Position numbers and translations under genes: made by a program. A stretch of DNA of 57,881 bases from an uncultured Planctomycetales bacterium (GTDB taxonomy: Bacteria; Omnitrophota; Gorgyraeia; Zapsychrales; GWA2-47-8): positions 3,784 through 61,664 of the forward strand of contig CAZCLW010000008.1 of NCBI GenBank assembly GCA_964499685.1, read 5' to 3'. The notes under the pieces were generated by a model. That model had not been told where the DNA came from and ran no database searches. It saw only the letters and a program-made list of their open reading frames with translations. Numbering within the stretch: the stretch's first letter is position 1; each line of letters opens with the position of its first letter. Shown piece by piece: positions 8,876 to 27,537 of the stretch.

Positions 8876-10736
8876 CAGCTTCTATTTTTAAAGCTTCATT
8901 CAATTCATTCTGGGCCTTTTCCCCAAAGCCCAGGTCTTTTAAGGTCTGCGCCCGGCCGCGATAGGCCTTGGCCACGACGGAATAATTCCATAATCTTGGA
9001 TCGACCGGCTTGGTTACCCATTGGTCCAGGTTCAGCTCATGGCTTTCTATGACGGCCTTGTTTTCAGGCACATCTTTAAGAAAAATGACGGCGTCATAAT
9101 CCAAATAAACGAGTTTCCATTCCGGGTTCGCATACACGGCCCTTAAAAAATCGGCCGGGACCGGTGTATCCATGATGCTTAAAAAAACACCGGTGATATT
9201 ATATGCGTTAACCTGTCGTCGAAAATTTTCCTGGTCGTTTGTATTCAGGATATTGAGATAAGCCTTAAAAAATTCTGCACCATAAACTTCCGTCCTTCCA
9301 TCTATATACACTTTGATGTCGGGATAATTATGCGCGATCAGGCGGTGCCCCGCTGCCAAATTGTTGAAAAAATTCCCGCTTATCCTATTGTCCGTTAGAA
9401 AATCCATACCCTTATGCGCGAACCGCTGATCCGACAGGTAGCCATACGATCTCTTGATCTTCAGCGAATGCAGATCAAGATACTCTTCCGGTTTCATTTT
9501 CAAGCCGGCAGCAATGATAACGATCAAGACCATCCCGATGTGCACAAAAATAGGAACGACGCATTGAACGCGTTGCCAAAACCTAGAACTGACGATGCCG
9601 GGCGGGAGGCGAACTCCGGATAAATTGACCATGAGCGACAAATACGCCGCGCACTCAAAAAACAATATATTGCGGGCTGCTTTCAGCGAAAACGCCAGGA
9701 ACAGCGACCACAATAACAAAATACGCAGATCAATGCGCCGGTAATTAAGGAGAAATCCCGCGAAAGAAACGACAATGAGCAGCTTGTAGACGGGATGAAG
9801 ATAAAAAAAGAGCGAGCGGAATGTGATGGGCGGCTGCAGCTCACCTACAAAAGAATAAAAGAATTTTGCCTTCTCATTCGCCTCCAGCATGACTTGGAAA
9901 GGATACCAGAATCCTTGGACAAAGTACGGATTGACAAAACATGCCAGGAAGACCACCGCCAAGGCGATTTTGAGCCGGCCATATTCTTTGTCGGAGAGCC
10001 GTCCGGCGGCGTTCCATTCAAAAGGCAAAGGAATACGCCGCTTGACCGCTTCCGATATCAATAGAACCAAGACCAATAGCGGCCCTAAAATAAAAAACCC
10101 ATGGATGTTTGTCCATAGGACTTGCAGAAAAAAAAGAGTGTAAACGGTCCATGTCTTTTTTAAACCGAACCATAAAAAGCCGACAAATGTTACAGTGAAC
10201 CAGAGGCTTACCACATCAGGCCGCAACATGGACTTGCCCGAGTGCCCCATGAGGATCAGGAAAAGAAACGGGACCGCTAAAAAAATCCGTTCCCGTTTAT
10301 ATGTAAGAAGCAGAAGGATGGCAAAAATAGAGACCACCAATATCATCTGCAGAAGCACCACGCTCCGGTGGCCCAAAATATCCCTCAGGGCATTAAGCCC
10401 CGTTTGCCATAACCATTCATGGTTAACCCAAGGCTGCCCTTCCATTGTAAACGAAAACACTTCCGTTTCCGGGATGCCGTTTTGGGCAATATATTTTCCC
10501 GCCTTTAAGTGGAACCAGGTGTCTTCATCGGTGACGTTGACACCGGCACGCAGGGTGATCAGGGAGAATAAAGCCCCTATGGCGATCAAACCTAACGCCC
10601 AATTCACTTTCTTGCAGGTCTCATATTTAAAAAGTGGGTTTGTCATGACTAGTGCCCGGAAGACTTCGTAATATCGGAATACTAAAAATGTACCATAAAA
10701 AAGAAAACCGCAAGCAAAATACTTGCGGTTTCTCAT
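8850..10736 (-). CDS. Large polytopic membrane protein with a soluble C-terminal domain, function unknown
   Basis: 628 aa. The N-terminal two thirds are strongly hydrophobic multi-pass. The C-terminal 200 aa or so are soluble. It overlaps the downstream gene by 26 nt. Confidence 0.45.
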   Translation of the reverse strand: MRNRKYFACGFLFYGTFLVFRYYEVFRALVMTNPLFKYETCKKVNWALGLIAIGALFSLITLRAGVNVTDEDTWFHLKAGKYIAQNGIPETEVFSFTMEGQPWVNHEWLWQTGLNALRDILGHRSVVLLQMILVVSIFAILLLLTYKRERIFLAVPFLFLILMGHSGKSMLRPDVVSLWFTVTFVGFLWFGLKKTWTVYTLFFLQVLWTNIHGFFILGPLLVLVLLISEAVKRRIPLPFEWNAAGRLSDKEYGRLKIALAVVFLACFVNPYFVQGFWYPFQVMLEANEKAKFFYSFVGELQPPITFRSLFFYLHPVYKLLIVVSFAGFLLNYRRIDLRILLLWSLFLAFSLKAARNILFFECAAYLSLMVNLSGVRLPPGIVSSRFWQRVQCVVPIFVHIGMVLIVIIAAGLKMKPEEYLDLHSLKIKRSYGYLSDQRFAHKGMDFLTDNRISGNFFNNLAAGHRLIAHNYPDIKVYIDGRTEVYGAEFFKAYLNILNTNDQENFRRQVNAYNITGVFLSIMDTPVPADFLRAVYANPEWKLVYLDYDAVIFLKDVPENKAVIESHELNLDQWVTKPVDPRLWNYSVVAKAYRGRAQTLKDLGFGEKAQNELNEALKIEAVARAAREG

Positions 10737-10759
10737 TTAATTTGGCGGAGGTAACCACC

Positions 10760-13129
10760 TTATAATTCTATATATTTCAGCCTCAGCGCATTGGTAATGA
10801 CCGAAACGGAACTGAAGCTCATGGCGGCCCCGGCAATGATGGGGCTTAAAAGTATACCGAAGAATGGATAAAGTACGCCGGCCGCGATCGGCACACCCAA
10901 AGCATTATAGATAAACGCGAAGAAAAGGTTCTGCCGGATATTTTTCATGACCGCGCGGCTCAATCGGATCGCATTGGCCAAACCGTTAAGGTCGCCTTTA
11001 ACCAGCGTCATGGAGGCGCTTTCAATGGCGACATCCGTCCCGGTGCCCATGGCAACACCCACATGCGCCGCCGCCAAGGCCGGCGCATCATTGATCCCGT
11101 CCCCGGCCATCATGACCCGCGCGCCATTGGCGCTCAGCTTGCGCACAATTTCCTGTTTGTCTTTGGGATTGAGTTCTGCGTAAACTTCATCGATATTAAG
11201 CTTCCGGGCAACGGCGTGGCCGGTCGCCTTATTATCACCGGTGAGCAGAGCGATCTTTAATCCCATCTTATGCAGCTCTTCAATCGCTTGCGGCGTGGTT
11301 GCTTTGATCGGATCGGAAATCCCGACGAGGCCCACTTCTTTCCCGTCTAAAGCGATCCAGACGACCGTTTGCGCCTGTTCCTGGAAATTTTTAGCTTCCT
11401 TTTGCAGCACCTCGGAAATTTTTATGCCGGAGACAGCTAAAAACTTTTCTTTTCCTAATAATGCCGGCTTTCCGCGGATAAACCCTTTAATGCCGCTGCC
11501 GGTCACCGACTCAAATTTTTCGACCTTTTCTAACGGGATATTTTTATCCTTGGCCGAATCCAGAATGGCTTTAGCCAAAGGATGCTCGCTGCTTTGTTCC
11601 AGCGAGGCGGCAATTTTCAACAAGTCGCTTTCGTTTGTTCCTGGAGCTGTTCTGAAGCTCACGACTTTGGGTTTGCCCTCTGTCAGGGTTCCTGTCTTGT
11701 CCGTTAAAAGATAGGTCACTTGTTCCGCCCGCTCGATCGCCTCCGCATTTTTGATCAGAATGCCTGTCTGGGCGCCTTTCCCGACACCGACCATGATCGA
11801 CATGGGTGTCGCTAAACCCAGCGCACACGGACAGGCGATGATGATGACGGCGATCGCATTCACCAAGGCAAACCCTAAACGCGGTTCGGGACCCCAAAAC
11901 ATCCAAACAATAAAGGTCAGCACCGCTATCAAAAGCACGGCCGGGACAAAAATTCCGGAAACTTTATCCGCCATGCGCTGGATCGGTGCCTGGCTGCGCT
12001 GGGCTTCCGCTACCATGTGAATGATCTGCGAAAGCAGGGTTTCGGCGCCGACTTTTTCCACCCGCATCACAAAGGTGCCGGTTTGATTGATCGTCGCGCC
12101 GATCACACGGTCCCCTTCCTTTTTCTGGACCGGAATGGGCTCGCCGGAGATCATAGACTCGTCCACAGTACTTTTCCCCTCGAGCATGATCCCGTCCAGG
12201 GGGATCTTTTCGCCCGGCTTTACGCGCAGCAGGTCGCCTTTCATGACTTTTTCAACGGCGACATCTTCCTCTTGCCCTTCTTTGACCAAATGTGCTTCTT
12301 TGGCCGCCAATCCTAAAAGCGCGCGGATCGCCTGACCGGTCCCGGCCCTCGCTTTGGCTTCTAAAAATTGGCCTAATAACACCAAGACCGTGATGACCGT
12401 GGCCGCCTCAAAGTAAAGCGGAACCTCTCCATGTTCTTTGATCGACTCGGGAAAAATCCCCGGGAGCAGGACCCCCGAGAGGCTGTAAAGGTACGCTGTA
12501 CCCACGCCGATGGAGATCAGCGTAAACATATTCAAACTTTTATTAATGATCGAATTCCATCCCCGCTTAAAAAAGATCCATCCGCCCCAGAGAACAACCG
12601 GTGTCGCGAGGATCAACTGGGCCCATCGCAAAATACCGGATGGAATCAACTCATGAAGATCGAACCCGGCCGTCATTTCATCAAGCATCAAAATGAGGAA
12701 CGGAACGGTCAGGACCGCACTGATCCAGAATTTCCGGGAGAAAAATTTAACCTCATGGTCTTCTTGAGGCGATCCCCCCGCCGGCAAGACGGGTTCCAGC
12801 GCCATGCCGCATTTGGGACAGTCCCCCGGCTTATCGGACACCACTTCCGGATGCATCGGACAGGTATACTGACCGGGCTGGGCTGATCCGGCCGATTCAG
12901 TTTTTTTTGAGGGCGCATGATGTTTGTGATCGCCCCCGCAGCAGGAATCTTTCTCTGCCTTTACCGCATGCGATTTAGGCGCGGCATGATCATGTCCTGC
13001 GTGCGGCGTTTGTTTTTCGAATTTTTCTTGGCAATGCGCACTGCAAAAGAAATAATCTTTTCCATCTCTGGTCGTTTTTAATGCTGTTGTCTCATCGACG
13101 CTCATCCCGCAGATCGGGTCTTTAGCCAT
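10760..13129 (-). CDS. copA: Copper-translocating P1B-type ATPase with non-classical N-terminal metal-binding modules
   Basis: 789 aa with [11 protein letters not shown] (CPC), [17 protein letters not shown] and TGES-like SGEP. The N-terminus has a YHS/TRASH-type DPICGMSVD...FFCSAHC, a His-rich stretch [12 protein letters not shown]...CCGGDHKHH, and YTCPMHPEV...[11 protein letters not shown]. Confidence 0.93.
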
Positions 13130-13145
13130 GACAATCTCCTTTTGA

Positions 13146-14420
13146 TTAGATCTTTAACCGTAAAAAGGCCATATAAGACATTGGGTTCTCCCCATAAAAA
13201 TCTTCCAACCGGTCCGGGAGGAAATGGATTCCCGCCAGCCCCCCGATACCCCACTGCATATTATTTTTTTCCGGAAAATCGTAGATATACCCGAGGGAAA
13301 CTTTGGTGACATCGAATATTTCATGCTCCAGAGGCTCCTCGGTAAAAAGTTCATTTTTTTCCACCTGTTCGATCCGGCCAAGAAGGGTATGGGTTTTATT
13401 GATATTCAATGCCGATTCTAATAAATACGCATCCAGGATGGCTCCGGGATCATTGCTGTTTTGTCCCCAGGCGAAAGTAGTTTGCCAATTGCCCCACTCA
13501 AGAGGTTTATTATATGTTGCCGAAAAACTTAAACGCTCGGTGTCAACGTGCGGATGAAGCTGCTCCGGGCTTTTTATATCCCCATAGCTCGCCTGCAGCG
13601 ACCAGTTGGGGAACGGATTGAATGTCAGCCGTCCTGAATAAGAATCGAATTCGGGCGCTTCAATGTCCCAACGCTTCTCATCGGGCTCACGCCCGCGAAA
13701 CACGGACCCCTCCACTTTGACGTTGCTCCATACATAACCGAGCGTGGCGACCCCGAAAGTGATATGGGTGGAATCGAGCCAGTGGTGAGACAACGGCGCT
13801 TCCGGAATTTCCATACCAGAAAATCGGTGCATGAAGGCCGGCGGCCCCAAAGCCGGCTCTCCGGGCAACCCGAAGTAGGCAAATACGGAACTGTCCTCAT
13901 TTAAGGGGTGGCTGTAACTCGTGGCCAATTCCATAAAAAAATCATGGGGATGCTGCCGGTCGATCAAGGGAGTCTGGCCATCCGCTGTCTCACCGGTCTG
14001 CAGTAAGAGCGGATAACCTTTTTTTCCTATCGTGATGGGTTCTAGCGAAAACATCCCGCGCAAGCCCCACGTGCCTTTTCCCAGCGGCCGCCGGCCCATG
14101 AGCATAAACATATTGGAACTGAAAAATTTCTCATCCCCGCGGTCACCCTCTTGGTAATCATAAATGCCGGTCACAAAACCGTGCGCCATCCATGACCAGT
14201 CGCCCGCCTGAAAATGGACCCCCTCGTGCGGCGATGAATCCGGCTGCCAGCTTGTCCCCGACGCTTCTCTTGCTGCAGGGTACAGACCATATAAGCCTTG
14301 CATGACATGCTCTGGTTCATCCCCGGAGGGATCGCTTATATGGTGCCTATGTTCATGCTGGGCATAGGCTGTGACGGCAAAAATCCCCGCAGCTACAATC
14401 GTTAAAAATATCTTTCTCAT
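13146..14420 (-). CDS. Secreted protein with a His-rich N-terminus, possibly an outer-membrane beta-barrel, in the copper operon
   Basis: 424 aa. Signal peptide [20 protein letters not shown] followed by [10 protein letters not shown]. Alternating aromatic/Gly-rich segments run throughout. It sits between the MerR-like gene (4-nt overlap) and copA (16-nt gap). Confidence 0.45.
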
Positions 14421-15471: not shown

Positions 15472-16971
15472 CTAAGGAAGACAGCATATCCCGTTCTTGC
15501 CTTCTTTTTTTGCCTGATAAAGGGCCTGATCAGACTTCAAAATAAAATCACGCCCATCCAGATTCTTATGATGCGCCGAAATACCCATGCTTATAGTTAT
15601 GACCCTTTTTAATTTCAGATTCGAGACAGCCTTCCTGATTTTCTCGGCTATCACTTTTGCTTGCAATATACTTGTTTCGGGAAGAATGATAACAAATTCA
15701 TCTCCGGCATAACGGCAGAATATATCAACCTCGCGTAAACTGCGGCTGACCATCATGGCGATCTTTTTGAGCACCTTATCGCCTTCGAGATGTCCATGGA
15801 CATCGTTGTAGGATTTAAAGTCATCAATATCAAACATTAAAAGACAAGCCGGCCTGTTATACCTGAAAGAACGGTCGACTTCCTGCTTTAAAGTCTGCAT
15901 AAAGTAACGATGATTGTAGATCCCGGTCAGCGAGTCTTTTGTGGACAGGTATTCCAGTTCACGACAATAATTCGCATTCTCGATGGCAATAGCGGCCTGC
16001 TGAATGATCATGGCAAGAATTTTTGAATCCTTTTGTGTAAAAATATCCTCCCCCTGAGGACCCTTATCATTTACATTAAGAACACCGATGGTCTTATTAT
16101 GCAATTTAATCGGAAGGCTCAAGAACGATTTGCTTTTATAAGAAGCCCTGCTCTTCCTGGCAATGCCCGGCTCGGTCTCTATATTTGCCACCACCATCGG
16201 ATTTCCATCCTTGGCCACCACCCCCGCAATTGATTCTCCAAGTTTTACACGCGTATGACTGACGACGTGTTCCTCCAGTCCTTTTGCCCCTTTTATAATA
16301 AGCTCCCTGGAGTCATCATCCAACACCATCAATGAACAGCGCTGGGCATCCAATATCTGAACCACCTTTTCAATGATAAAGTCGATGAGATGATGCAATT
16401 CGAGGATGGAACTGATGCGCTGATCAATATTGAGGACCTGTTCGAGTTTTTGTTCTTCACTTGACAATTCTTTATGTAAGGCCTTGAGGTCATTTTCGGC
16501 CTTTTTGCGAGCCGTTATGTCCACACCCGACACGAGGATGCAGTGCGGCTTGCCCTCTTCTTGGAACAGGAGCTGAGAGGATGAAAATAATACGGTTTTA
16601 ACCGACCCATCTTTGGCATAAATACCTACTTCCAGATCAACTGTTTCCCCTCCTTCAAAACCTTTCTCAAACTGAGACAAGAACGCTTTCCGTTTATCCG
16701 GAATAATAAATTTAATAAGCGAATTATTTACAACTTCATGCTTGCGATAACCCAATTCCTCCAGAAATGCCTTATTGACGTTTTCGATCTTACCGTCCAA
16801 GCCAATGATCACACTAAAGGCAAGGTTTCTGTCAAACAGGAAGTTGTTTCTCTCTTTAATGTTTTCAACATATAGCCGCAGCGATGCCAATTCACCGGAA
16901 AGCTGATTTTTAGCTTTCTGCTCATTCTTATTCATAAATTTTATTGTAGCGCTTATCGCAGGAGACAACAA
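15472..16971 (-). CDS. PAS-GAF-GGDEF diguanylate cyclase
   Basis: 499 aa. It has a PAS-like segment, a GAF-like segment (SLMVLDDDSRELIIKGAKG...LSLPI...GVLNV), and a GGDEF domain with the RYAGDEF active site and a RxxD-like upstream context. The true start may be the internal MNKNEQ at 16935. Confidence 0.9.
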   Translation of the reverse strand: MLSPAISATIKFMNKNEQKAKNQLSGELASLRLYVENIKERNNFLFDRNLAFSVIIGLDGKIENVNKAFLEELGYRKHEVVNNSLIKFIIPDKRKAFLSQFEKGFEGGETVDLEVGIYAKDGSVKTVLFSSSQLLFQEEGKPHCILVSGVDITARKKAENDLKALHKELSSEEQKLEQVLNIDQRISSILELHHLIDFIIEKVVQILDAQRCSLMVLDDDSRELIIKGAKGLEEHVVSHTRVKLGESIAGVVAKDGNPMVVANIETEPGIARKSRASYKSKSFLSLPIKLHNKTIGVLNVNDKGPQGEDIFTQKDSKILAMIIQQAAIAIENANYCRELEYLSTKDSLTGIYNHRYFMQTLKQEVDRSFRYNRPACLLMFDIDDFKSYNDVHGHLEGDKVLKKIAMMVSRSLREVDIFCRYAGDEFVIILPETSILQAKVIAEKIRKAVSNLKLKRVITISMGISAHHKNLDGRDFILKSDQALYQAKKEGKNGICCLP

Positions 16972-17013: not shown

Positions 17014-17030
17014 TGGTGGAGGTGCCGGGG
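17014..17030. repeat. Distal attachment-site repeat: a 17-bp copy of the tmRNA 3' acceptor end
   Basis: TGGTGGAGGTGCCGGGG is identical to 27147-27163. On the minus strand it reads CCCCGGCACCTCCACCA. Confidence 0.75.
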
Positions 17031-17115: not shown

Positions 17116-17925
17116 TTACTTATCGAACTTCGATTTGACTTTAATTAACCACTTAAATGAATAATCCTTACTCCATTCTAACACTCGATCCAGCATATAT
17201 TGATATATGAAAACTTCGTCGTACTGACTCTTCGAAAGGGCATCATTTAATTCGTTAAACCCCTTTAAATCTTCGACATAAACAATACCCATATTTTGTG
17301 AAATAGTATGCCCGCTAACGATTAAAAGCCAAGTTTGATCATACCCATCGCCTACTGATTTACTTTTTGCTTTTACAATGTTTATAAGCTCTACCTCATT
17401 CAAACCAACCATTCCTCCTGAATGATTCCACTCCCATGTGTAGTAACAATTAACCTTGGCAATTCTCACAAATTTTAAATACTCTGTCAATAAACTCTTG
17501 TCCGGTGGCTCGAAATCTTGATGAAACCCTGAAACATCTTTTAATTTTTCTTTTACAAATGAGAGCAATTGATTAGCAAACTCCCGGTGTTCTCTTTTAG
17601 GTGGCACTTTGAGCTTACTAAATCGAAGATAACAAGCGATGTCATCGAATTCATTATAAGCTTTACGTTCCTGTGAAATAGCATCTTGAAGCTTCTTCCA
17701 AGTTTCTTCAATACTACGACGAGGAATTCCTCCTTCACCTGTAGCATCAGAGTGAAATTCTGTTATTTCGGTGGCTATCTTTTTCTTTTGTGGAGAAACA
17801 ATAATATAGTCTGGAGGATCATCTCCTCTGGCAATACTGGAATCGTTCCAATTGATTAATGACAAAAAATTCTTAAGATAGAATTCTTCGTCATGTTCTT
17901 GACTAATTTTATTCTGGCTTGTCAT
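17116..17925 (-). CDS. Hypothetical protein at the island edge, with a weak PD-(D/E)xK-like signature
   Basis: 269 aa. The N-terminal region reads DDPPDYIIV...ATEITEFHSD, which could be a D...ExT/K nuclease-like core. The rest is not recognisable. Confidence 0.4.
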   Translation of the reverse strand: MTSQNKISQEHDEEFYLKNFLSLINWNDSSIARGDDPPDYIIVSPQKKKIATEITEFHSDATGEGGIPRRSIEETWKKLQDAISQERKAYNEFDDIACYLRFSKLKVPPKREHREFANQLLSFVKEKLKDVSGFHQDFEPPDKSLLTEYLKFVRIAKVNCYYTWEWNHSGGMVGLNEVELINIVKAKSKSVGDGYDQTWLLIVSGHTISQNMGIVYVEDLKGFNELNDALSKSQYDEVFIYQYMLDRVLEWSKDYSFKWLIKVKSKFDK

Positions 17926-17935
17926 CGCATTCCTT

Positions 17936-19012
17936 TTATATTCTAGTAGAGGCTAAAACTTTCTTTCGACCAACTTCTGTTGAAAACGAGTAATGTTTGA
18001 GCAATACATTGATATCAGTGTGGCCGGTAATGCCCATAACATCCTTTAGGGCTAAACCGTCTCGGGCTGCTTCGGTTACTAAAGACCTTCTAAAGTCGTG
18101 AGGCGTAATCCGTCTGTCGATGATTTCTTGACTAATCCTAACAAGGTAGTTCCTGTAGTGGTCCGCTTTAATTTTGTTGCGCTTAGAATTATAAAAAAGC
18201 CATTGGGTTTCGGAACCATCTGCTAAAAAAACCTTAATTACCTTGGCTAAGTCTGCATCAATAGATTCTAAAACAAAATCCTTCTTATTTTTTCTAATAG
18301 CTGCTTCCAGTTTTATTGATATCGGCTCTTTCCCTTCCATCTCAATGTTATATCTTTTGATACTGAGGGTTTCTTCTATTCGCCAGCCTAACCTCATTAG
18401 AAAGTAGGTTACACCGAAATAGCAGGGTCTATCCACCTTAACAAAATCTAGTAAAGCTATTTTATCCTCTTTGCTTATAGGAGTAAAACTTTTGCTACTA
18501 TATTCTGGTCTCTTAATATCTTCCAAGAATTCTGTTATTCCCTTTTCACAATAACCCAAACGCGCCAGACGTCGAATAATTGCTTTAAGCGTTCCTAATT
18601 CTGAACGCCAGCCGGCTATTCTTTTAAGATCCATCGTTACATAGTTCTTGTATTCGTATAAACACTCTAGCCTGAGGTCAGTGAGTCTTTTAATTATCGG
18701 ATATCTTGATGGAAGAAAGGTCAAAAAAAATAGGTCAAATGTGCTACGACTCCTATTTCGGGTTTTATATGCCAGACTGTCTGACTCCATATCTCTTATC
18801 AATTGGTTCCTCAGAACATTAAAGTCAGCGTTCAACTTATTATGATTATTAGATTGGAAGCTTGATAAATATTCATCCATTAACTTTATTTTAATATTGT
18901 AAGCCTCTCGAAATGAAAGAGCCCTAACGCGCCGCTGATACCGCTTCATGCCTTTACCAAGCCTAAAGTTTATTTCGTAAACACCTTTAGCAATTTTTCT
19001 TACGCCATCCAT
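17936..19012 (-). CDS. int: Tyrosine recombinase / phage-type integrase
   Basis: 358 aa. The C-terminal catalytic domain has GWRIEETLSI (Arg I), HDFRRSLVT (HxxR) and GHTDINVLLKHYSF (His...Tyr). Confidence 0.9.
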   Translation of the reverse strand: MDGVRKIAKGVYEINFRLGKGMKRYQRRVRALSFREAYNIKIKLMDEYLSSFQSNNHNKLNADFNVLRNQLIRDMESDSLAYKTRNRSRSTFDLFFLTFLPSRYPIIKRLTDLRLECLYEYKNYVTMDLKRIAGWRSELGTLKAIIRRLARLGYCEKGITEFLEDIKRPEYSSKSFTPISKEDKIALLDFVKVDRPCYFGVTYFLMRLGWRIEETLSIKRYNIEMEGKEPISIKLEAAIRKNKKDFVLESIDADLAKVIKVFLADGSETQWLFYNSKRNKIKADHYRNYLVRISQEIIDRRITPHDFRRSLVTEAARDGLALKDVMGITGHTDINVLLKHYSFSTEVGRKKVLASTRI

Positions 19013-19387: not shown

Positions 19388-20161
19388 TTATTTTTGAACC
19401 CTTAAGAACAGGCGCCTACTGATAAGTGGCTGGTGAACGCCTTTCACTGAAATATCACCAAAAGAACTTTCACCACAATACAGGCTATTGCCCAACAAAT
19501 ACTTCAGGGAGTCGATTGAGAACTGCTTTCCCCTCTTGGAGACAACACCATGACGATTTAGAGATTTAATAATTCTTGTATAACTAAAACCTTTTGATCT
19601 CCACCTAAAGATTTTATCAACCCAATTGGATTCATTCTCATCAGGAATCAACACATCATCTAGTTTTCGATATCCAAAAGGAATGGGACCAGAACCTCGC
19701 TCCCCATTCTTAGCATTATTAATTCGCCCTTCTTTCAGCCTAGAGGCAATTACATCTTTTTCAAGCTCTGCGAAGATGTCGGCAATACGCTTAAAAGCTT
19801 TCTGCAAAGGATCTTCCATATCATAGTCAGGGTCGCAGACAGAATGCAGCTCAACATCATATTTCTTAAATTGAGTTTCAATCCATAAGGCAACAGTCAA
19901 CTCTCGACTTAGCCTGTCCTGCTTATAAACAATTACTCTTTTGACTTTACCGGATTCACAATCTTTAAGAAGCCCCAAGAGACCGGGCCTATCTTTGACC
20001 GCACCACTTATACCCCGATCTTCATAAAATACTTCAACCTCTAACTTATGCTCCTCACAGTATTCAATGATCTTACGCTTCTGGATTTCCAGACCGTCCC
20101 CATTTTCAACTTGATTTGCTGTAGAAACCCTCAAATATCCGACGATACCATTTGAATTCAT
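19388..20161 (-). CDS. Serine recombinase (resolvase catalytic domain plus recombinase domain, short form)
   Basis: 257 aa with GYLRVSTANQ (catalytic Ser), RGISGA, VIVYKQDRLSRE, then a recombinase-domain-like GPIPFGYRK...W..KIF. It lacks the long zinc-ribbon/coiled-coil tail of large serine integrases. Confidence 0.88.
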   Translation of the reverse strand: MNSNGIVGYLRVSTANQVENGDGLEIQKRKIIEYCEEHKLEVEVFYEDRGISGAVKDRPGLLGLLKDCESGKVKRVIVYKQDRLSRELTVALWIETQFKKYDVELHSVCDPDYDMEDPLQKAFKRIADIFAELEKDVIASRLKEGRINNAKNGERGSGPIPFGYRKLDDVLIPDENESNWVDKIFRWRSKGFSYTRIIKSLNRHGVVSKRGKQFSIDSLKYLLGNSLYCGESSFGDISVKGVHQPLISRRLFLRVQK

Positions 20162-20330: not shown

Positions 20331-21518
20331 TTAAATAAGCTTCCTAATTTGATTTAGCTGACTTTTAAGCGACTTGCCACCAAGTATATTATCAAAATAT
20401 TTTTCTACGCCTCCATAATGGAACTTTATCCTGTCCTTCCCGAAAAAGTCAATATATCTAGTCACCGCAAAACATCTTTTCAAATCTTCACTGATCTTAT
20501 GCGGAGGCCTATCGCTTCCTCTTAGGACAACATCAATTACTACAGCAGGATTAACTGCTCTCCTCACTAATGTTCTAAAATGATAATCGGCCTCGGGCAA
20601 CGAGTAACCAATAAACACAATTTTATTGGCTTCGGATAACTCTACATAGGCATTGTTCCATACAGATTGAATATGAGTATTATCAAATATTTTTAAAAAC
20701 GTGGGCGTTATAATGAAAGATTCAAGGATTGGTTTCATATCTTTATTAAATTTATTGCAGTGTGTACAAATTCGCTTCTTTACATATAATTCCCACACAT
20801 TCTCAGTTGAGCCGAGACCTGTAAATAACTTTTCGCAATTGGGACATAGTAACCAATTTGTTGATCCATGCAATTTTAATAATTTGATATTATATACCCG
20901 TTTTGCTCTTTGCAAGATTGATGGAATATGTTTTGCTCGTTTGCCGACTTTAGAAGAATAGCAACAAAAATCGACACCTATCTTTCTATGTCCATTGACT
21001 GAAACAAGACAATGTTCTATCGAACTTTCAACTAACGAATCCCAGTTTAAAGATATAATACTGAATGGATCCTTTCTTAACCCTGCCTTCATCCTCTCAA
21101 TAATTAAATAAGCTGCAAATCTTCTGTAAAAATCATCTTTCTTTTCAGCATATTTATTAATCGCATTATGAAAAAGAATTAAAATTAATCGCTTCAAGGC
21201 GTCACGAGTATTATCTAAAGATCGCCAAGTATCGCCTAAACAATAATTTCTTTTTGCAATTGATTGATCCAAGAGGGTAAAAACATCTTCCAGCGGTGGG
21301 GTGGCATTGGAGGTAAATATTCTTTTCAAAAATTTCTCTACAAGCTGCTTATTTGGTAAAACCTCATTTGTTACCAAATCCAAATCTGGGCCACTTAAGA
21401 TATCGATGTCTAAATCAAAAACTTTCTTTAAAATCTGACGCTGAACCGGCACCTCCCCAGCGACTGAGAATCCAGCTCCTAAAATATATACGGTCTTTGA
21501 CGTTATAGTTTTTTTCAT
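20331..21518 (-). CDS. SIR2-like (SIR2_2 / defence-type sirtuin fold) protein with a CxxC...CxxC zinc ribbon
   Basis: 395 aa with YILGAGFS (Rossmann Gly loop), ISLNWDSLVE (the TTNYD-like motif of SIR2_2 proteins), LKLHGSTNWLLCPNC...CTHC (sirtuin-style HG plus Zn ribbon) and VFIGYSLPEADYH. Confidence 0.75.
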   Translation of the reverse strand: MKKTITSKTVYILGAGFSVAGEVPVQRQILKKVFDLDIDILSGPDLDLVTNEVLPNKQLVEKFLKRIFTSNATPPLEDVFTLLDQSIAKRNYCLGDTWRSLDNTRDALKRLILILFHNAINKYAEKKDDFYRRFAAYLIIERMKAGLRKDPFSIISLNWDSLVESSIEHCLVSVNGHRKIGVDFCCYSSKVGKRAKHIPSILQRAKRVYNIKLLKLHGSTNWLLCPNCEKLFTGLGSTENVWELYVKKRICTHCNKFNKDMKPILESFIITPTFLKIFDNTHIQSVWNNAYVELSEANKIVFIGYSLPEADYHFRTLVRRAVNPAVVIDVVLRGSDRPPHKISEDLKRCFAVTRYIDFFGKDRIKFHYGGVEKYFDNILGGKSLKSQLNQIRKLI

Positions 21519-21533
21519 TCTTTAACATTACCT

Positions 21534-22886
21534 TCAGAGCCCTTGAATAATTCGCGACCAAGTCCGACAATGCTCTACACTGATTGACTTCGAATGGTTG
21601 GCGAAAATCTGAATTGTATCATCAAGCGTGTCTAGAATATTCTGCTTTGTCATTGGCTGTCGATACTCTTTATGTTTCGACCACATGTAATGTGACACTG
21701 TTAATTTCTTTGTTTCGGGCAACGGGTACGATTTTCCACTCTTAGTGTTTCCAGTAATACCGTATTTTGCAAAATCAACTTCGGGGTCTGTTCTTATTAC
21801 TGCTCTACATTGCTTACAATCGCAAACTTTCTTAAAGTAGGAACCTACATTTTTGTTGCCTTCAACAATTCTTATCGCTCTAAAAGCGTCTCTATACAAC
21901 AATCTTGCATGAAGAGACGGAAAATAAAATTTTGCAGTTGGGAATCCTCCGCCAACAGGCACAACGCCTCGAGTTTCTCCATATTCCAAACTATGAGCGA
22001 CTCCTATCAAATTCTTGATAATTCCGCTTTTTCCTAAAGCTACAGAAAAATAACTACCATATAAATTAATGACGGGAGCCACCCTGCCGAGATGCTGAAG
22101 GAAATGAATAAATGCTTCTAAAGTTTTCTGATTGGCTTCTTGCTCTACAAGAGAATCGACCCAAATAAGAAAATAGTCGGGTCTGGTAGAACTGTATGCA
22201 TTTACCAACGTTCTCAGATTGCTTGGACTTGTCAGCAAGTCTTGCGATATTGTAATTTGAAGCGCTAATTTCTTATTAAACTTTTTAGATATACTTTTTG
22301 AAGCATTAGCACATTTAATATTTATATCAAGCCACTGTGCGACATTAGAAGGTCGAAGGAAAAAATATGGAGCAACCAACATGAGAGGCGTAAAGATTGA
22401 TTGGGTTTTTATATTAGAGTATTGATAATATGGAGTGGCATCTGATTTATTTATTTCATCCGATATTGCCCGCATCTGAAAAGTCAAGACCCTCTTACAA
22501 AAATCACTTAATATTTTCTTATTCCTAAAATCAGCTGGTTCTAATGGCCTCGATTGTTTCACAACACTACTTAAAACAGGCTCTCCGTAAACATCGATTA
22601 ACTTCTGAAGAGATAATTTAACTTTTCCGGATCTCATGCCGGACTTAGCGGTTATGTTTGCTATATCATGCTGAAAGGCGTGTGTTTGAGGGTCGATAAA
22701 ATACGGTTTATTTTTGGCTTTTATGGACAAGAAGGTAGCCAATGCACCTCGCATATATGCTAAAATACCAGCGTTGATGATGAGATCGTCATATGTACTA
22801 AGAAACTCCCCCAAAAGAAATTCCTGATCTCCAGCTGTGCCAAAACGCACTAAATGAGAACCCGATAGAGAGCTTTGCTTTTTCAA
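21534..22886 (-). CDS. 450-aa protein of unknown function, with a CxCxxC motif and possible TGT/DpdA-like TIM-barrel features
   Basis: A TTG start directly abuts the upstream TAG stop, with an AGAGGA RBS inside the upstream gene. It contains YFIDPQTHAFQ (compare the DSGGFQ / DSGAF strand-end Asp of TGT/DpdA) and VCDCKQC followed by downstream His residues (compare the TGT Zn site CxCxxC...H). This is motif-level resemblance only. Confidence 0.35.
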   Translation of the reverse strand: MKKQSSLSGSHLVRFGTAGDQEFLLGEFLSTYDDLIINAGILAYMRGALATFLSIKAKNKPYFIDPQTHAFQHDIANITAKSGMRSGKVKLSLQKLIDVYGEPVLSSVVKQSRPLEPADFRNKKILSDFCKRVLTFQMRAISDEINKSDATPYYQYSNIKTQSIFTPLMLVAPYFFLRPSNVAQWLDINIKCANASKSISKKFNKKLALQITISQDLLTSPSNLRTLVNAYSSTRPDYFLIWVDSLVEQEANQKTLEAFIHFLQHLGRVAPVINLYGSYFSVALGKSGIIKNLIGVAHSLEYGETRGVVPVGGGFPTAKFYFPSLHARLLYRDAFRAIRIVEGNKNVGSYFKKVCDCKQCRAVIRTDPEVDFAKYGITGNTKSGKSYPLPETKKLTVSHYMWSKHKEYRQPMTKQNILDTLDDTIQIFANHSKSISVEHCRTWSRIIQGL

Positions 22887-23306
22887 CTATGTCCTCTGAT
22901 TTGTTTTAAGATATTTTCTAAGATGAGAACGAGCCGTAGACCAAGTATCACTAGATTTGGGAGCTTCTAAAGCGATTTCAAATGGCCAGCTACCTTTTTC
23001 AGAATAAAATTTTAATCCTACGCCTGCTTCACTTAACGCTCTTTTCATCTCTTGCGTAATCTCTCGTTTTGGCATGCAAATATAGGCAAAATCAGCACCT
23101 AATCTATGATCAGATGATTGCTTTATCGCCCTACGCCAATCTTTGATCTTGAATTCAACTGTTATGATAAACTTATGCTTAATGTACACTAAATCCACCA
23201 TCCTTCCAAGAAAAGGGACTTCGCAACAAACCAAAAAAGAAGACATTCGTCTTATTTTCTTATAGGCTCCATTCACTATTCTTTTTTCGGTTGTTTTAGT
23301 AGCCAT
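22887..23306 (-). CDS. Small PD-(D/E)xK-like nuclease-fold protein (139 aa)
   Basis: I use the internal start MATKTTEKR at 23306, which has a GAGG RBS 8 nt upstream and lies 2 nt after the upstream stop. The core reads GRMVDLVYI...IITVEFKIKDW...QSSDH...YICMP, which fits a D...ExK nuclease motif. Confidence 0.5.
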   Translation of the reverse strand: MATKTTEKRIVNGAYKKIRRMSSFLVCCEVPFLGRMVDLVYIKHKFIITVEFKIKDWRRAIKQSSDHRLGADFAYICMPKREITQEMKRALSEAGVGLKFYSEKGSWPFEIALEAPKSSDTWSTARSHLRKYLKTNQRT

Positions 23307-23308
23307 GA

Positions 23309-23911
23309 TTAGGACCTCAGAATTTTGTCGCTTATCTTTGATTTCTCGGTCGTTTCTGGATACTTTGTGTATACGTATTTTAAAAGGGCAGTTAAAGAAA
23401 CACCTGCACAACGCTCCTTAAATTTGTCCAGTATTTCCCATTGACTTGAGTTGAATGTATCAACAAGTTTATCTTTAACAAAACTCTTTCCTTTTTGACT
23501 CAAAGAAAATTCCACAGAGTCCATTTTAGGATTGTCGGCCTCTACGACGCCTGAGTTTGCCTGCCAATACTTATATTCCGATTCTTCTTCTTGACTTGGT
23601 TTTCTATTGGCTAGACTCTTGGCGGTCACAAAATTCAAATTGACTAAAAACTCCAAATCAACATACACCTGCTCCGAAAATGGACCAAAGTCATGCGGGT
23701 CAAATTTAGGAAAAATATCATCCGGAACTGCTTGGCCTAGATTAAATTTCTTCCGTATCTCCTTATCAAAAAGAAAAACCATTTTCATTAATCGAGTACG
23801 GTCCTGTATAGGTTCACAGATTTTACCTTTATGCCCGCGAGCATATAATAAAACCATTATTAAGTCTTTCGTACTTGTTAGTTTACTCATTGCATTCACC
23901 CCAGTATTCAT
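23309..23911 (-). CDS. Panacea/SocA-like (DUF4065) wHTH protein
   Basis: 200 aa. The stretch RTRLMKMVFLFDKEI...FDPHDFGPFSEQVYVDLEFL resembles the DUF4065 pattern (LxKLLY..D...., then ...GP.S..vy..l). The start may be MSKLTS at 23890, which has a GGGGTGA RBS. Confidence 0.45.
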   Translation of the reverse strand: MNTGVNAMSKLTSTKDLIMVLLYARGHKGKICEPIQDRTRLMKMVFLFDKEIRKKFNLGQAVPDDIFPKFDPHDFGPFSEQVYVDLEFLVNLNFVTAKSLANRKPSQEEESEYKYWQANSGVVEADNPKMDSVEFSLSQKGKSFVKDKLVDTFNSSQWEILDKFKERCAGVSLTALLKYVYTKYPETTEKSKISDKILRS

Positions 23912-24063
23912 TTGATTTATAACTGATTATAATTCTAAGATTATACAAAATCAATACAACAAGCAAATATCACCCCGAGGGCAATATTTACCACACATAC
24001 AGTGAAAGTCTAATTATCCGCCTAGTAAATTACTCTCTGAGAGAGTGCTTGGGGTAAAATCTT

Positions 24064-24576
24064 TCAGGAAGACAGTTCTATGCTTGTAACCTTCCGTTCT
24101 GCTCTTTGTTGATACGCAGAATCCTTCAATCTTTCATAGATTTTCTTTGCTTCGGGGAGGCCTTGCAGATTAAGGGTGCGGTCTGATTTATCCAGCGAAG
24201 TTACGGCGATTGTTCCAGTCTTAAATATTCGATCCCAAATACCTTGCTTAAAGTTGATATCTTTAATTCTCCAGACATCAGAAGTCTCGTGATTTCGACT
24301 TAGAAGGCCTGTCGTCCGATCAATTATTTTTGATGTAATTTTATAATCTTCTGTATTGACATTAATCGCCAAGCCGATGAGAAAAAGCAATCCTAGCCCA
24401 TACACTGGAATGAAAAGAATACACAATATAAGAGGGGTCACATAACCCTTCCAAGATGCCTTACCCTCATACAGTACTTCTTCTTTCGATGGAGATGAGC
24501 TTAAATCCTTTTTACAATGTCTACAGAAAATTGCCTCATCTTGAATTTCCTCTGCACAGAAAGGACATTTTTTCAT
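24064..24576 (-). CDS. Zinc-ribbon, two TM helices and a bPH (DUF304-like) domain membrane protein
   Basis: 170 aa. N-terminal CPFCAEEI...CRHC ribbon, then two hydrophobic helices, then YKITSKIIDRTTGLLSRNHETSDVWRIKDINFKQGIWDRIFKTGTI, typical of membrane-flanked bacterial PH domains. Confidence 0.6.
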   Translation of the reverse strand: MKKCPFCAEEIQDEAIFCRHCKKDLSSSPSKEEVLYEGKASWKGYVTPLILCILFIPVYGLGLLFLIGLAINVNTEDYKITSKIIDRTTGLLSRNHETSDVWRIKDINFKQGIWDRIFKTGTIAVTSLDKSDRTLNLQGLPEAKKIYERLKDSAYQQRAERKVTSIELSS

Positions 24577-24668: not shown

Positions 24669-24905
24669 ATGAGCAGTAAAGGCAAGATAAAAGTTGTTCC
24701 TGAGAAATTTGGACTTATAGTTCGCAGACGACGCCACAACCTCAATCTTTCTCAGGAAGAATTTGCCGAGAAGGCTGGTATCCATAGGACTTACGTCAGC
24801 GATATAGAACTCGGCAAGGTTGACATCAGCCTCACTGTTGCCACTAAGATCGCATCCGCTTTAAAAACGCCCCTCAGTTCTCTTCTCAAAGAATCAGAAC
24901 GATAA
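24669..24905 (+). CDS. XRE-family helix-turn-helix transcriptional regulator
   Basis: 78 aa with LNLSQEEFAEKAGIHRTYVSDIELGK, a classic Cro/CI HTH. It is divergent from the bPH gene. Confidence 0.88.
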   Translation: MSSKGKIKVVPEKFGLIVRRRRHNLNLSQEEFAEKAGIHRTYVSDIELGKVDISLTVATKIASALKTPLSSLLKESER

Positions 24906-25031: not shown

Positions 25032-26351
25032 CTAATAGCATTCCTTCCATGTCTTGCCTGAACGGATAGTAACAGGAAACTTGAGACCGTTGATCTCCAT
25101 CTCCATGATAGCTCTAATCTGAGCCTTGCTTTGCTCCAACAGATTATCTGAGACAGTGAACAGAATACCGTCGTGCAACATCGTATTGATAATAAACCCT
25201 GCTTGATGAAGACCAACCATGGCAAACTTAACAATATCAGCTGCGGTTCCCTGAATCTGGTGATTGACGACCCTGCGTTCTGCTTTCTTACTGGCTGAGA
25301 TGTTGGGAGAGTTAATGTCGAGAAGAAACCGCCTACGACCATAGAACGTGTCAGAATATCCAGAGACCCTTGCCTTTTCAATCTGTTCCATTTTGTAACG
25401 TTCAATCTCAGGAATATTTTTCTTATAAGCGTCCATTAACTTTTGGGCTTCGCCAGTTGTGATGTTAAGCTTCCGAGCAAGACCAACAGCTTCCTGACCG
25501 TATGATTGACCAAAATTGAGAGCCTTACCCAACTTCCTTTGGTTGTCAGTGACAGAGTGGTATGGAATACCTTTCATATCAGCCACAACTTTACGGTGAA
25601 GATCGAGACCAGTAGCCCAACAATTTTTAAAGTAAATGTCGTGGGCCAAAGCGGACAGAATCCTTAGCTCGAAAGAATCATAGTCCGCTAAAACAAAAGA
25701 ACAGCCTGAATCAGCATGGATAACATCTCTAGCCAGTTCTGGGATGGATTGAAAAGAATAATTCTTGGTATAGAGCCTACCGGATGGACAGGTATCGACA
25801 TAGCGACAGAATATCTTGCCAGTATCTTTGTTAGTAGCCTTGTGAATGGCCTTGAGTGATGAGAGTAAATCCTCTAACTCCCGATATTTAGTTATCTGAT
25901 CAGTAACAGGATTATTAATGTTACGCAGGATATATCTTGAAGTGGATGGACGACCTGACTTAGTTTTCTGAACTTTAACCGCTAACTTTGACAACAAAAT
26001 ATCTGCAACATCTTTGGAACTATTGAAGTTAATTTGGTCTGAAATCCCTAATACTTCACACAAATTCTGTCCTAATTCTGCTTTATGAAATTCTACTTTC
26101 CTGATGAGTACTTCCAGCTCGACTAGGTCAACGTTTAAACCTCTGTTTTCCATCGAGGCAATAACGTTCATCGTGTCCTGCTCTAAATCTTTTATCATCT
26201 GGCTGTGCATAGTAATTTCTTCGTAGTCCTCGTTTAGTAATATCAAGGGAGCGTTCCCCCGACCGCCCCCTTGATTAATAGATAAACCATCACGTTTTTT
26301 AGACGTCAAGAAAAATTTTTGAGCAAATAATTTACTCGTCGACATTTTCAT
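25032..26351 (-). CDS. Family A DNA polymerase, polymerase domain only, with no recognisable exonuclease domains
   Basis: 439 aa. Motif A is LADYDSFELRIL, motif B is RKLGKALNFGQSYG, then GRRR and NHQIQGTAADI. Motif C reads MLHDGILF (HDG instead of HDE). The start overlaps the Rep stop (ATGA). Confidence 0.88.
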   Translation of the reverse strand: MKMSTSKLFAQKFFLTSKKRDGLSINQGGGRGNAPLILLNEDYEEITMHSQMIKDLEQDTMNVIASMENRGLNVDLVELEVLIRKVEFHKAELGQNLCEVLGISDQINFNSSKDVADILLSKLAVKVQKTKSGRPSTSRYILRNINNPVTDQITKYRELEDLLSSLKAIHKATNKDTGKIFCRYVDTCPSGRLYTKNYSFQSIPELARDVIHADSGCSFVLADYDSFELRILSALAHDIYFKNCWATGLDLHRKVVADMKGIPYHSVTDNQRKLGKALNFGQSYGQEAVGLARKLNITTGEAQKLMDAYKKNIPEIERYKMEQIEKARVSGYSDTFYGRRRFLLDINSPNISASKKAERRVVNHQIQGTAADIVKFAMVGLHQAGFIINTMLHDGILFTVSDNLLEQSKAQIRAIMEMEINGLKFPVTIRSGKTWKECY

Positions 26352-26812
26352 TGATACCTTCGGCGAATAGTATATTTATCAAAATTAACAAAGGATGGCT
26401 TAATGTACTTGCTGGCAAGATACCAGCTACCGCTCGACTCTTTTTGATATGGTTCAACTTCTGCTCTTCCGAACATTCGGTACCATTTATCCTGAATTAT
26501 TGAACAACCTTCTGGTTTTATTCCGCTAGTTAGAAGATGAATATGGACGCCATTTCGTGGGTCTTGGCCCTCAAAAACCACAAATACTCTGACAGGGTCA
26601 GAGGTTTTATTTCTTTCTTTGGGAAGGTGGTATTTAATGAAACGCTTTAAATCTCTGACTGCAGTTGGAAGAAATGTAACTTTTCGAAAGGTGAATGTTA
26701 TCCATAAATCCCAATCAAAGGAAGAAATCCAATTCTCTAACGCGATGACTTTGGGGTCATTGATTCTGGGTTCTAAGTCTTCACCAATCTTTATTCTTCG
26801 GGGGAAATTCAT
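26348..26812 (-). CDS. HUH-superfamily rolling-circle replication initiator (Rep)-like protein
   Basis: 154 aa. Motif I-like WITFTF, motif II VHIHLL (H-hydrophobic-H), motif III-like WYLASKYIKP (Tyr-containing YxxxKY). Confidence 0.6.
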   Translation of the reverse strand: MNFPRRIKIGEDLEPRINDPKVIALENWISSFDWDLWITFTFRKVTFLPTAVRDLKRFIKYHLPKERNKTSDPVRVFVVFEGQDPRNGVHIHLLTSGIKPEGCSIIQDKWYRMFGRAEVEPYQKESSGSWYLASKYIKPSFVNFDKYTIRRRYQ

Positions 26813-27146: not shown

Positions 27147-27163
27147 TGGTGGAGGTGCCGGGG
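27147..27163. repeat. Proximal attachment-site repeat, which is the functional 3' end of ssrA
   Basis: TGGTGGAGGTGCCGGGG is identical to 17014-17030. Confidence 0.75.
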
Positions 27164-27537
27164 ATCGAACCCGGGTCCTTGGGCTCCATTGCATAAGCGT
27201 CTACATGCGTAGTCTGTTTTTGATTTCATCCCGCTCCTTTAAACAGACAAACGTGAACGGGACTATCTTCCTTAAGTTTCGCTCCGCCGACGAAAGCGAT
27301 CGGTGGAGCTATCCTGCTAGGGTCATCCTAAAGAGCCGCAGGAACTCTCCCTAAGACGGCATCGCGCTATTAGGCGATGGCTGGTTCGCTGTTGAAAACG
27401 TTATTCACGATTTCTTCAGCTTGCGCTAACGTTGTGTCGTTTGCGTGTATGTGTGCCTAGATGATTAACGAGGCCAACCAGGCTTCCTCGGCATGCGACC
27501 TATACACTGAGAACTCAAGTCGAGACCAATCACCCCC
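27147..27537 (-). ncRNA. ssrA: tmRNA (SsrA), 391 nt
   Basis: The minus strand starts GGGGGTGATTGGTCTCGAC and ends GGGTTCGATCCCCGGCACCTCCACCA. The acceptor stem GGGGGUG/CACCUCC has the G3:U pair, and the T-arm is CCGGG-TTCGATC-CCCGG. The internal tag frame GCA AAC GAC ... GCC TAA TAG encodes ANDTTLAQAEEIVNNVFNSEPAIA. smpB lies 1.3 kb away. Confidence 0.93.

Follow-up and report, generated by a model that had tools for sequence, protein, structure and literature searches.

A mobile gene cassette with a predicted TGT-fold signature protein and an interchangeable SIR2 module: a candidate conflict system on an ssrA-integrated island of an Omnitrophota genome

We describe a four-gene cassette carried on the minus strand, between positions 20331 and 23911, of a 57,881-nucleotide stretch of DNA (the window; contig CAZCLW010000008.1 of assembly GCA_964499685.1, positions 3,784 to 61,664) from an uncultured Planctomycetales bacterium that the GTDB taxonomy places in the Omnitrophota. 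Its genes, called here g1 to g4 in the order in which they are read, encode a Panacea/SocA-like protein, a PD-(D/E)xK nuclease-like protein, a protein predicted to adopt the fold of the tRNA-guanine transglycosylases (TGT) and a SIR2 protein, and the cassette occurs in more than 100 loci belonging to more than 15 phyla. The defining unit is g1-g2-g3, and SIR2 is one of at least three modules that replace one another around this core. We observe a constant gene order with close coupling, fold and family assignments for the products, conservation of residues of catalytic type, swapping of the effector, and a distribution that is both mobile and patchy. On the whole we lean, without strong confidence, towards reading the cassette as a mobile toxin-antitoxin (TA)-like abortive-infection or conflict module, composed of a three-protein core and an exchangeable killing module.

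Results

Organization of the cassette

An earlier reading of this DNA, made from the letters alone (the sequence-only reading), had described a coupled four-gene unit on the minus strand, and direct inspection of the open reading frames (ORFs) and of their junctions gave the same unit. Its features are as follows (aa, amino acids).

23309-23911, minus strand: g1, 200 aa as an ORF; Panacea/SocA-like winged-helix protein, putative antitoxin or regulator.
22887-23306, minus strand: g2, 139 aa from its ATG; minimal PD-(D/E)xK nuclease-like protein.
21534-22886, minus strand: g3, 450 aa with a TTG start; signature protein of the cassette, predicted to form a (beta/alpha)8 barrel of the TGT fold with a zinc subdomain at its C terminus.
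20331-21518, minus strand: g4, 395 aa; the variable effector module, a SIR2 protein (SIR2_2-like) that bears a zinc ribbon of the sirtuin type.
23926..23954, minus strand: candidate sigma-70-like promoter (TTGATT-17-TATAAT) upstream of g1; a consensus match, which is weak evidence.

At the first junction, the TAA of g1 (23311-23309) is followed by the dinucleotide TC and then by the ATG of g2 at 23306; the g2 frame also holds a longer, TTG-initiated ORF that extends to 23411. The TAG of g2 (22889-22887) directly abuts the TTG of g3 at 22886, with the sequence AGAGGA 5 nt upstream, and a 15-nt spacer separates the TGA stop of g3 from the ATG of g4 at 21518. Because the homologues of g1 align from residue 8 on, its translation probably starts from the ATG at 23890 and yields a protein of 193 aa; the database gene call is 159 aa long, compared with 200 aa for the mechanically derived ORF. 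Promoter and terminator scans of the region returned sites no more numerous than in shuffled sequence.

Database homologues exist for g3 (n = 183, with a best non-self E value of 3.5e-159), for g1 (n = 121) and for g4 (n = 644), and the ORFs are therefore real genes rather than chance ORFs. Every motif quoted in the sequence-only reading was retrieved at the protein level, namely GAGFS, SLNWDSL, KLHGS, CPNC…CTHC and FIGYSLPEAD in g4, CDCKQC in g3, and VDL…VEFK in g2.

Distribution and variable modules

The genomic contexts of three g3 homologues displayed the same four genes in metagenome-assembled genomes (MAGs) of Omnitrophota, Actinobacteria and Binataceae. A scan of 185,579 species genomes of GTDB yielded 47 loci, which are distributed over more than 15 phyla, among them members of the candidate phyla radiation (CPR), Planctomycetota, Verrucomicrobiota, Bacillota (the isolate Moorella mulderi DSM 14980), Bacteroidota, Spirochaetota and one Methanosarcinales archaeon. 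In every complete locus of these 47 genomes, g1, g2 and g3 were found together by tblastn and ORF mapping, with frames that overlap or nearly abut. The remaining gene divides the loci into three types.

SIR2 type, 21 of 47 GTDB loci: SIR2 gene after g3; one locus permuted to g3-g4-g1-g2, one decayed and two cut by contig ends.
Transmembrane (TM) type, 25 of 47 GTDB loci: no SIR2 gene; a protein of 160-195 aa with 2-3 predicted TM helices encoded between g1 and g2.
PIN type, 1 of 47 GTDB loci, archaeal: a PIN-domain protein (PF01850, 6e-8) in the slot between g1 and g2.

The same classes were recovered in 80 further metagenome loci (29 with SIR2, 22 with a recognisable TM protein, at least 8 with a more divergent TM protein in the slot and one with PIN), and a PIN RNase occupies the g1-g2 slot in two archaeal loci overall. 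The four genes are thus conserved together, in close coupling, across many phyla, which is in line with the sequence-only reading. That reading had also called the system SIR2-based: a conserved cassette with a SIR2 gene is indeed real, but its core is g1-g2-g3, and in about half of the loci a TM protein takes the place of SIR2. The patchy spread across phyla fits horizontal transfer.

Among 72,556 plasmids searched by tblastn with g3, only pNG400 of Haloarcula marismortui ATCC 43049 (NC_006392.1) matched. This plasmid bears remote homologues of g1, g2 and g3 (hhalign probabilities of 99.3%, 96.7% and 98.1%, respectively; locus L057, 4006-6242) without an effector gene, next to an HNH endonuclease gene and parA, and the NCBI annotation of the g1 homologue reads 'type II toxin-antitoxin system antitoxin SocA domain-containing protein'. 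The host of pNG400 is a cultured and genetically tractable haloarchaeon. The same search of 50,697 GenBank phages returned nothing, and, since only 3 of the 2.9 million contigs of IMG/VR carry the cassette, it is not a typical phage gene set. On two predicted viral contigs of IMG/VR (L054 and L055, ~9965-13850), g3-g4 is convergent with g1-g2, an arrangement that suggests two functional sub-modules, g1-g2 and g3-g4. Decay was seen in a Verrucomicrobiae MAG (CAVQPQ010000003.1; L016, 9986-12951), where g3 is cut to a 376-aa ORF and a SIR2 remnant of 65 residues lies ~1.3 kb downstream.

The products of 141 flanking ORFs include recurring resolvases, DNA methyltransferases, type I specificity subunits, HNH nucleases, MADS components and integrases, and a BglII/MT-A70 restriction-modification (R-M) pair on one side and HigBA on the other flank the cassette in the actinobacterial MAG. 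A fifth conserved cassette gene was considered and rejected, none recurring among these 141 neighbours.

The TGT-fold protein g3

The g3 protein had no match in Pfam, PADLOC, NCBIfam or PHROGs, a profile search of Protein Data Bank (PDB) chains was also empty, and none of 41 members of its family matched the Pfam TGT model. Its structure was predicted with AlphaFold2 (AF2) from 41 homologues, with a mean predicted local distance difference test (pLDDT) score of 92.8 and a predicted template modelling (pTM) score of 0.92, and all 50 top Foldseek matches of this model in the PDB were bacterial tRNA-guanine transglycosylases (E values from 2.6e-5, prob 1.0, TM scores of 0.45-0.58). As modelled, g3 thus has the fold of the TGT superfamily, a (beta/alpha)8 barrel followed by a C-terminal CxCxxC…H zinc subdomain, and the TGT/DpdA-like character guessed from the letters is upheld at the level of the fold.

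Within the close family, the zinc signature (C355, C357, C360 and H399), whose first part aligns to the CDCYTC of Escherichia coli Tgt, is invariant, and D65, E304, C355, C360 and H399 remain so when archaeal members of ~20-25% identity are added. Invariant residues border on barrel strands in the model: D65/P66 come after the strand 62-65, and H298/Y302/G303/E304 are located at or immediately past the strand 293-299. Such positions form the usual catalytic face of a TIM barrel, and the model places at this face of g3 an invariant polar pocket that would include D65 and E304. An exhaustive HMMER search extended the family to 971 representatives after clustering at 50% identity, 755 of them at E <= 1e-10, nearly all being stand-alone proteins of 430-475 aa.

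A TGT-like protein beside a nuclease brings to mind the Dpd modification-restriction systems, and g3 could insert a non-canonical base in host DNA as a self mark while g2 cuts unmarked DNA. The fold and the zinc site of g3 are those of transglycosylases acting on nucleic acids, a PD-(D/E)xK nuclease is always encoded beside it, and DpdA is itself the TGT-family DNA transglycosylase of an R-M system (PMC10164549). However, DpdB and DpdD-K are absent from the cassette, no base-biosynthesis gene (QueC/D/E, FolE) is present in it or recurs among its neighbours, and a Foldseek search of viral structures (BFVD) with the g3 model gave no DpdA-like or other convincing match. Moreover, an R-M logic leaves the swappable SIR2, membrane and PIN modules as well as the Panacea protein unexplained, and we consider such a Dpd-like function decidedly improbable.

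The g1, g2 and g4 proteins

The Pfam family PF13274 (SocA_Panacea) is matched by 22 of the 39 cassette-linked g1 homologues (best E = 1.2e-7), in agreement, at the family level, with the Panacea/SocA identity first proposed for g1. The window g1 had a partial PADLOC match to the candidate PDC-M19A (6e-10, over 77 residues only), the Joint Genome Institute (JGI) annotation of its relatives is 'YwgA', and a search of PDB chains with the g1 sequence profile found nothing. The best Foldseek match of an AF2 model built from database homologues (pLDDT 83) was chain B of 7yk3, the Mycobacterium tuberculosis DarTG complex (E = 7e-3, prob 0.97, TM score ~0.35), a chain that we take to be the Panacea-like C-terminal domain of DarG; the next matches were winged helix-turn-helix (wHTH) DNA-binding proteins. 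We assign g1 to the Panacea/SocA family on these sequence matches, which hold at the family level and lie mostly below curated thresholds.

In g2, E7, E51, K53 and Q63 are invariant among 35 homologues, and at least 90% of them keep D38. The g2 profile aligned this D…ExK core to the PD-(D/E)xK structures 3dnx (E = 0.07) and 1y88 (E = 0.6), both below threshold, and weak matches to PD-(D/E)xK families of Pfam were obtained for 16 of the 35 members, among them MmcB-like (8), REase_MTES_1575 (3) and PDDEXK_9 (3). With its conserved D…(D/E)xK core, g2 qualifies by sequence as a putative member of the PD-(D/E)xK superfamily; the conservation of D38-E51-x-K53-Q63 and the consistent weak family matches argue for the assignment made in the sequence-only reading.

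The assignment of g4 to the SIR2_2 type was likewise sustained, since the SIR2 motifs are invariant among its homologues. Across 21 cassette-linked sequences, G14-A15-G16, W159, D160, H217-G218-S219 and C225 do not vary, and at least 90% of the sequences keep N158, C228, C251 and C254; the four cysteines form a zinc ribbon of the sirtuin type. The g4 protein scored under the cutoff with Pfam SIR2 (E = 0.0036, 17.7 bits for a cutoff of 24) and at ~1e-6 with the PADLOC SIR2 models, the match to Aga_SIR2 being partial (1.8e-6, residues 116-226, the SIR2 core only). Its profile matched the SIR2-like structure 8w9l (2e-4), Sir2Af2 and SIRT3, with the NxD and HG motifs aligned. By these motifs (GAG(I/F)S loop, NxD and the catalytic His of HG), g4 falls within the SIR2 superfamily and is predicted to be catalytically intact, and it may act by NAD+ depletion.

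We also considered g4 as an ordinary protein deacylase. This candidate was rejected, as the CobB-type deacylase equivalogs of NCBIfam gave only E >= 0.07 against cutoffs above 200 bits (for NF001752, E = 0.074 and 12.6 bits for a cutoff of 221) and the genomic context is a mobile cassette. The broader view that a housekeeping sirtuin and a tRNA-modifying TGT paralogue are linked here by chance could draw on the canonical zinc ribbon of g4, on its partial matches to Pfam SIR2 and to SIRT3/Sir2Af2, and on the TGT fold of g3. Yet g3 has no sequence-level TGT match and its family was found in only 47 of 185,579 species genomes, patchily across phyla; SIR2 is dispensable, a membrane protein or PIN replacing it, and the cassette resides on an AT-rich foreign island. 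Altogether, a housekeeping role seems to us hardly credible.

The integrative element at ssrA

Over ~17-27 kb of the window the GC content falls to 35-39%, compared with ~52% outside, and the tmRNA gene ssrA lies on the minus strand at 27147-27537. A 17-nt direct repeat bounds the region, and the first position of its proximal copy (27147) coincides with the 3' end of the tmRNA gene, which is read on the minus strand. At 10.1 kb, the AT-rich segment 17014-27163 is an element that has integrated at this end of ssrA and carries the cassette as cargo. The mobile AT-rich island with recombinases announced in the sequence-only reading is therefore borne out by the GC drop, the direct repeat, and the serine recombinase and integrase genes. 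The features of the element are as follows.

17014..17030, no strand assigned: distal 17-nt direct repeat, TGGTGGAGGTGCCGGGG, marking the island's far end; same sequence as the copy at 27147-27163.
27147..27163, no strand assigned: proximal 17-nt direct repeat, within the 3' end of ssrA (attachment site).
17116-17925, minus strand: ORF of 269 aa at the island edge, adjoining the integrase gene; no match in Pfam or PHROGs.
17936-19012: tyrosine integrase, adjacent as well.
19388-20161: serine recombinase, adjacent to the cassette on the same side as the integrase.
24064-24576, minus strand, and 24669-24905, plus strand: protein with an N-terminal zinc ribbon and a bPH_2 domain, and a divergent gene with an XRE-type HTH.
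25032-26351: family-A DNA polymerase of 439 aa, polymerase domain only.
26348-26812: G2P-like Rep protein.

The element also carries a gene for a conserved 71-aa protein. Its backbone recurs in an Omnitrophota MAG (L001/L006), with identities of 33% for Rep, 60% for PolA and 66% for the serine recombinase, and it may represent an uncharacterised family of self-replicating integrative elements.

Such carriage would also fit an addiction module, in which a multi-gene PanA-type TA system stabilises mobile elements and plasmids by post-segregational killing and has no role in phage defence. The g1 protein belongs to an antitoxin domain family, the cassette is carried by an integrative element in the window and by a plasmid of Haloarcula, genes for resolvases, integrases and transposases are recurrent neighbours, and membrane toxins, PIN and SIR2 proteins are also classical toxin types. 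In contrast, many loci are on long chromosomal contigs devoid of obvious mobile genes nearby, and g2 and g3 add two conserved enzymes beyond the needs of a simple addiction module. Many TA systems have, besides, proved to act in defence, and the two roles do not exclude each other; plain addiction as the whole function appears to us unlikely.

Three further observations concern the surroundings of the cassette and of the element. The protein with the zinc ribbon and bPH_2 domain ('membrane-flanked domain', moron category of PHROGs) is encoded directly upstream of the cassette and could be further cargo or an exclusion gene of the element. The tmRNA gene (27147-27537, minus strand) has an unusually long predicted tag peptide of 24 residues, ANDTTLAQAEEIVNNVFNSEPAIA. 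Just outside the island boundary, in a zone of intermediate GC content, a PAS-GAF-GGDEF diguanylate cyclase gene (15472-16971, minus strand) is probably a host gene.

Discussion

The exchange of effectors around a constant core, the patchy spread, the mobile carriage and the occasional decay are typical of conflict systems, and SIR2, TM and PIN proteins are classical types of cell-killing or growth-arresting effectors. We read the cassette as a TA-like abortive-infection module because Panacea proteins bind toxins and because the TM and PIN genes occupy the position next to g1. In the model that we infer, as regards biochemical activities, trigger, binding partners and defence phenotype alike, g1 would silence the toxic parts in the resting cell through binding, autorepression or both. 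Upon infection or another disturbance, g3 would recognise, excise or exchange a base in the invading DNA or in tRNA, and g2 would cut nucleic acid. The restraint exerted by g1 would then be lost, and SIR2 would consume NAD+, in the simplest case, or ADP-ribosylate a target, so that growth stops. In the sister cassettes, the same core would drive a membrane protein with 2-3 TM helices or a PIN RNase.

Several points weigh against this model. The variable genes do not share one position, SIR2 being encoded after g3 but the TM and PIN proteins after g1; because of that position, and because g1-g2 and g3-g4 form separate pairs in the permuted loci, SIR2 may be a partner of g3 rather than being restrained by g1. 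The trio-only locus of pNG400 suggests that toxicity may already lie in g2 or g3, or that the core may be functional alone. The catalytic Asp pair of TGT enzymes is D102/D280 in Zymomonas mobilis; D65 and E304 of g3, invariant acidic residues at strand ends, are candidate equivalents, and hhalign of the g3 profile with E. coli Tgt aligned the zinc motif alone, to CDCYTC. No curated threshold was reached by g1 or g2 of the window, g1 having no significant Pfam match, PF13274 included, and g2 only PADLOC matches at E >= 0.008. With its sirtuin-type zinc ribbon, g4 may be a deacylase or an ADP-ribosyltransferase rather than a plain NAD+ hydrolase. Finally, the neighbourhood, which the sequence-only reading took for a typical defence context, does comprise R-M, MADS and recombinase genes, but many of the flanking genes are housekeeping genes.

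A bolder possibility, which we regard as doubtful, is that g3 founds a new class of immune enzymes acting on nucleobases in nucleic acids, a base event being the signal on which a Panacea-type inhibitor releases its interchangeable effectors (SIR2, membrane or PIN). Its targets could be, for example, 7-deazaguanine-type or other bases of invading DNA, or g3 could swap or remove a base in tRNA.

Comparison with known systems

The sequence-only reading stated that the gene combination matched no known system, and this was the outcome of our searches as well. No PADLOC v2.0 system or candidate fits the cassette, neither Pfam, NCBIfam nor PHROGs identified it as a described system, and no description of it was found in the open full-text literature on the gene combination, on PDC-M19 or on YwgA. 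The absence of a SLOG, HerA, prokaryotic Argonaute (pAgo), TIR or STAND partner, also pointed out in that reading, holds for the whole cassette.

The SIR2 effectors of defence systems (ThsA, DSR1/DSR2, SIR2-HerA and SIR2-APAZ/pAgo) resemble g4 in that a SIR2 protein with intact motifs is encoded in a mobile multigene cassette, and the best solved-structure match of g4, 8w9l, is a 'SIR2-like domain-containing protein'. Unlike them, g4 has a canonical sirtuin zinc ribbon and is optional in its own system. Thoeris consists of the TIR protein ThsB and of ThsA, in which SIR2 (or a TM region) is fused to SLOG, and none of the four proteins matched TIR or SLOG in Pfam or PADLOC. The cassette contains no ATPase as in SIR2-HerA (Nezha). 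DSR1 and DSR2 are single large proteins with an N-terminal SIR2 domain and a long C-terminal sensor region, whereas the 395 aa of g4 are essentially a SIR2 domain with a tail of ~60 aa. In SPARSA, a short pAgo acts with an APAZ domain fused to SIR2; Pfam and PADLOC detected neither pAgo nor APAZ in the cassette.

DarTG, likewise a TA/defence module and one whose chemistry depends on NAD+, is close in another respect, as chain B of 7yk3 is the best structural match of g1. However, this match is weak, g1 has no macrodomain and the cassette has no DarT-like toxin.

Panacea-domain proteins neutralise very diverse toxins by direct binding, and the validated PanT toxins are often small membrane proteins or RNases encoded beside PanA (PMC8832971). 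The family of g1 matches Panacea, the sister cassettes place a small membrane protein or a PIN RNase directly after g1, and a single protein of antitoxin type occurs with toxic modules unrelated to one another, all of which recall the PanA-PanT pairs. PanAT operons are, in contrast, bicistronic, with two or at most three genes and an adjacent toxin, while the cassette has four genes, with g2 and g3 as invariant partners and SIR2 not adjacent to g1. The PanAT survey left out operons of more than three genes (Kurata et al. 2022, PMC8832971).

Two systems offer precedents for g3. DpdA is a TGT-superfamily protein working outside tRNA modification in a conflict system on genomic islands; it needs the ParB-like ATPase DpdB, and the restriction side of Dpd needs DpdD-K (PMC10164549). 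The cassette differs in having no DpdB, DpdC or DpdD-K, its partners being Panacea, nuclease and SIR2 proteins; no ParB-like or other Dpd component is present in it or recurs among its neighbours, and the zinc motif is the only part of g3 in which sequence similarity to TGT or DpdA was detected. Cap10 of the type IV cyclic-oligonucleotide-based antiphage signalling systems (CBASS) is another TGT-fold protein repurposed within an anti-phage system; it has lost the zinc site, binds a nucleotidyltransferase of the cGAS/DncV-like type (CD-NTase) that is tagged with 7-deazaguanine, and works with the QueC-like Cap9 (bioRxiv 10.1101/2025.04.06.647259). In contrast, g3 keeps CxCxxC…H and had no PADLOC match, and the cassette has no CD-NTase or QueC-like gene. 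Glycosylases of the helix-hairpin-helix (HhH) type that attack 7-deazaguanine phage DNA illustrate how base-directed enzymes can serve as stand-alone defences (bioRxiv 10.1101/2025.10.29.685425), and they are unrelated to g3 in fold.

As far as searched, the cassette is thus undescribed, and it would belong among the modular TA/abortive-infection systems. Its family is concentrated in uncultured lineages (CPR, Omnitrophota and Planctomycetota), which may explain how it escaped screens of reference genomes, and its natural variants, with SIR2, a membrane protein, a PIN RNase or, on pNG400, no effector, provide a ready-made dissection of the system. If confirmed, it would be a new multigene conflict system whose signature is an unclassified TGT-fold branch of ~970 sequence clusters with no Pfam family, and the idea of Panacea as a "universal antitoxin" would extend from two-gene pairs to a larger machine. 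The upside of the finding lies mainly in what the TGT-like g3 does: confirmation may bring to light a new mechanism by which foreign or modified nucleic acids are sensed, and the cassette would join Dpd and type IV CBASS as a third independent case in which queuosine-pathway-type enzymes were recruited to prokaryotic immunity.

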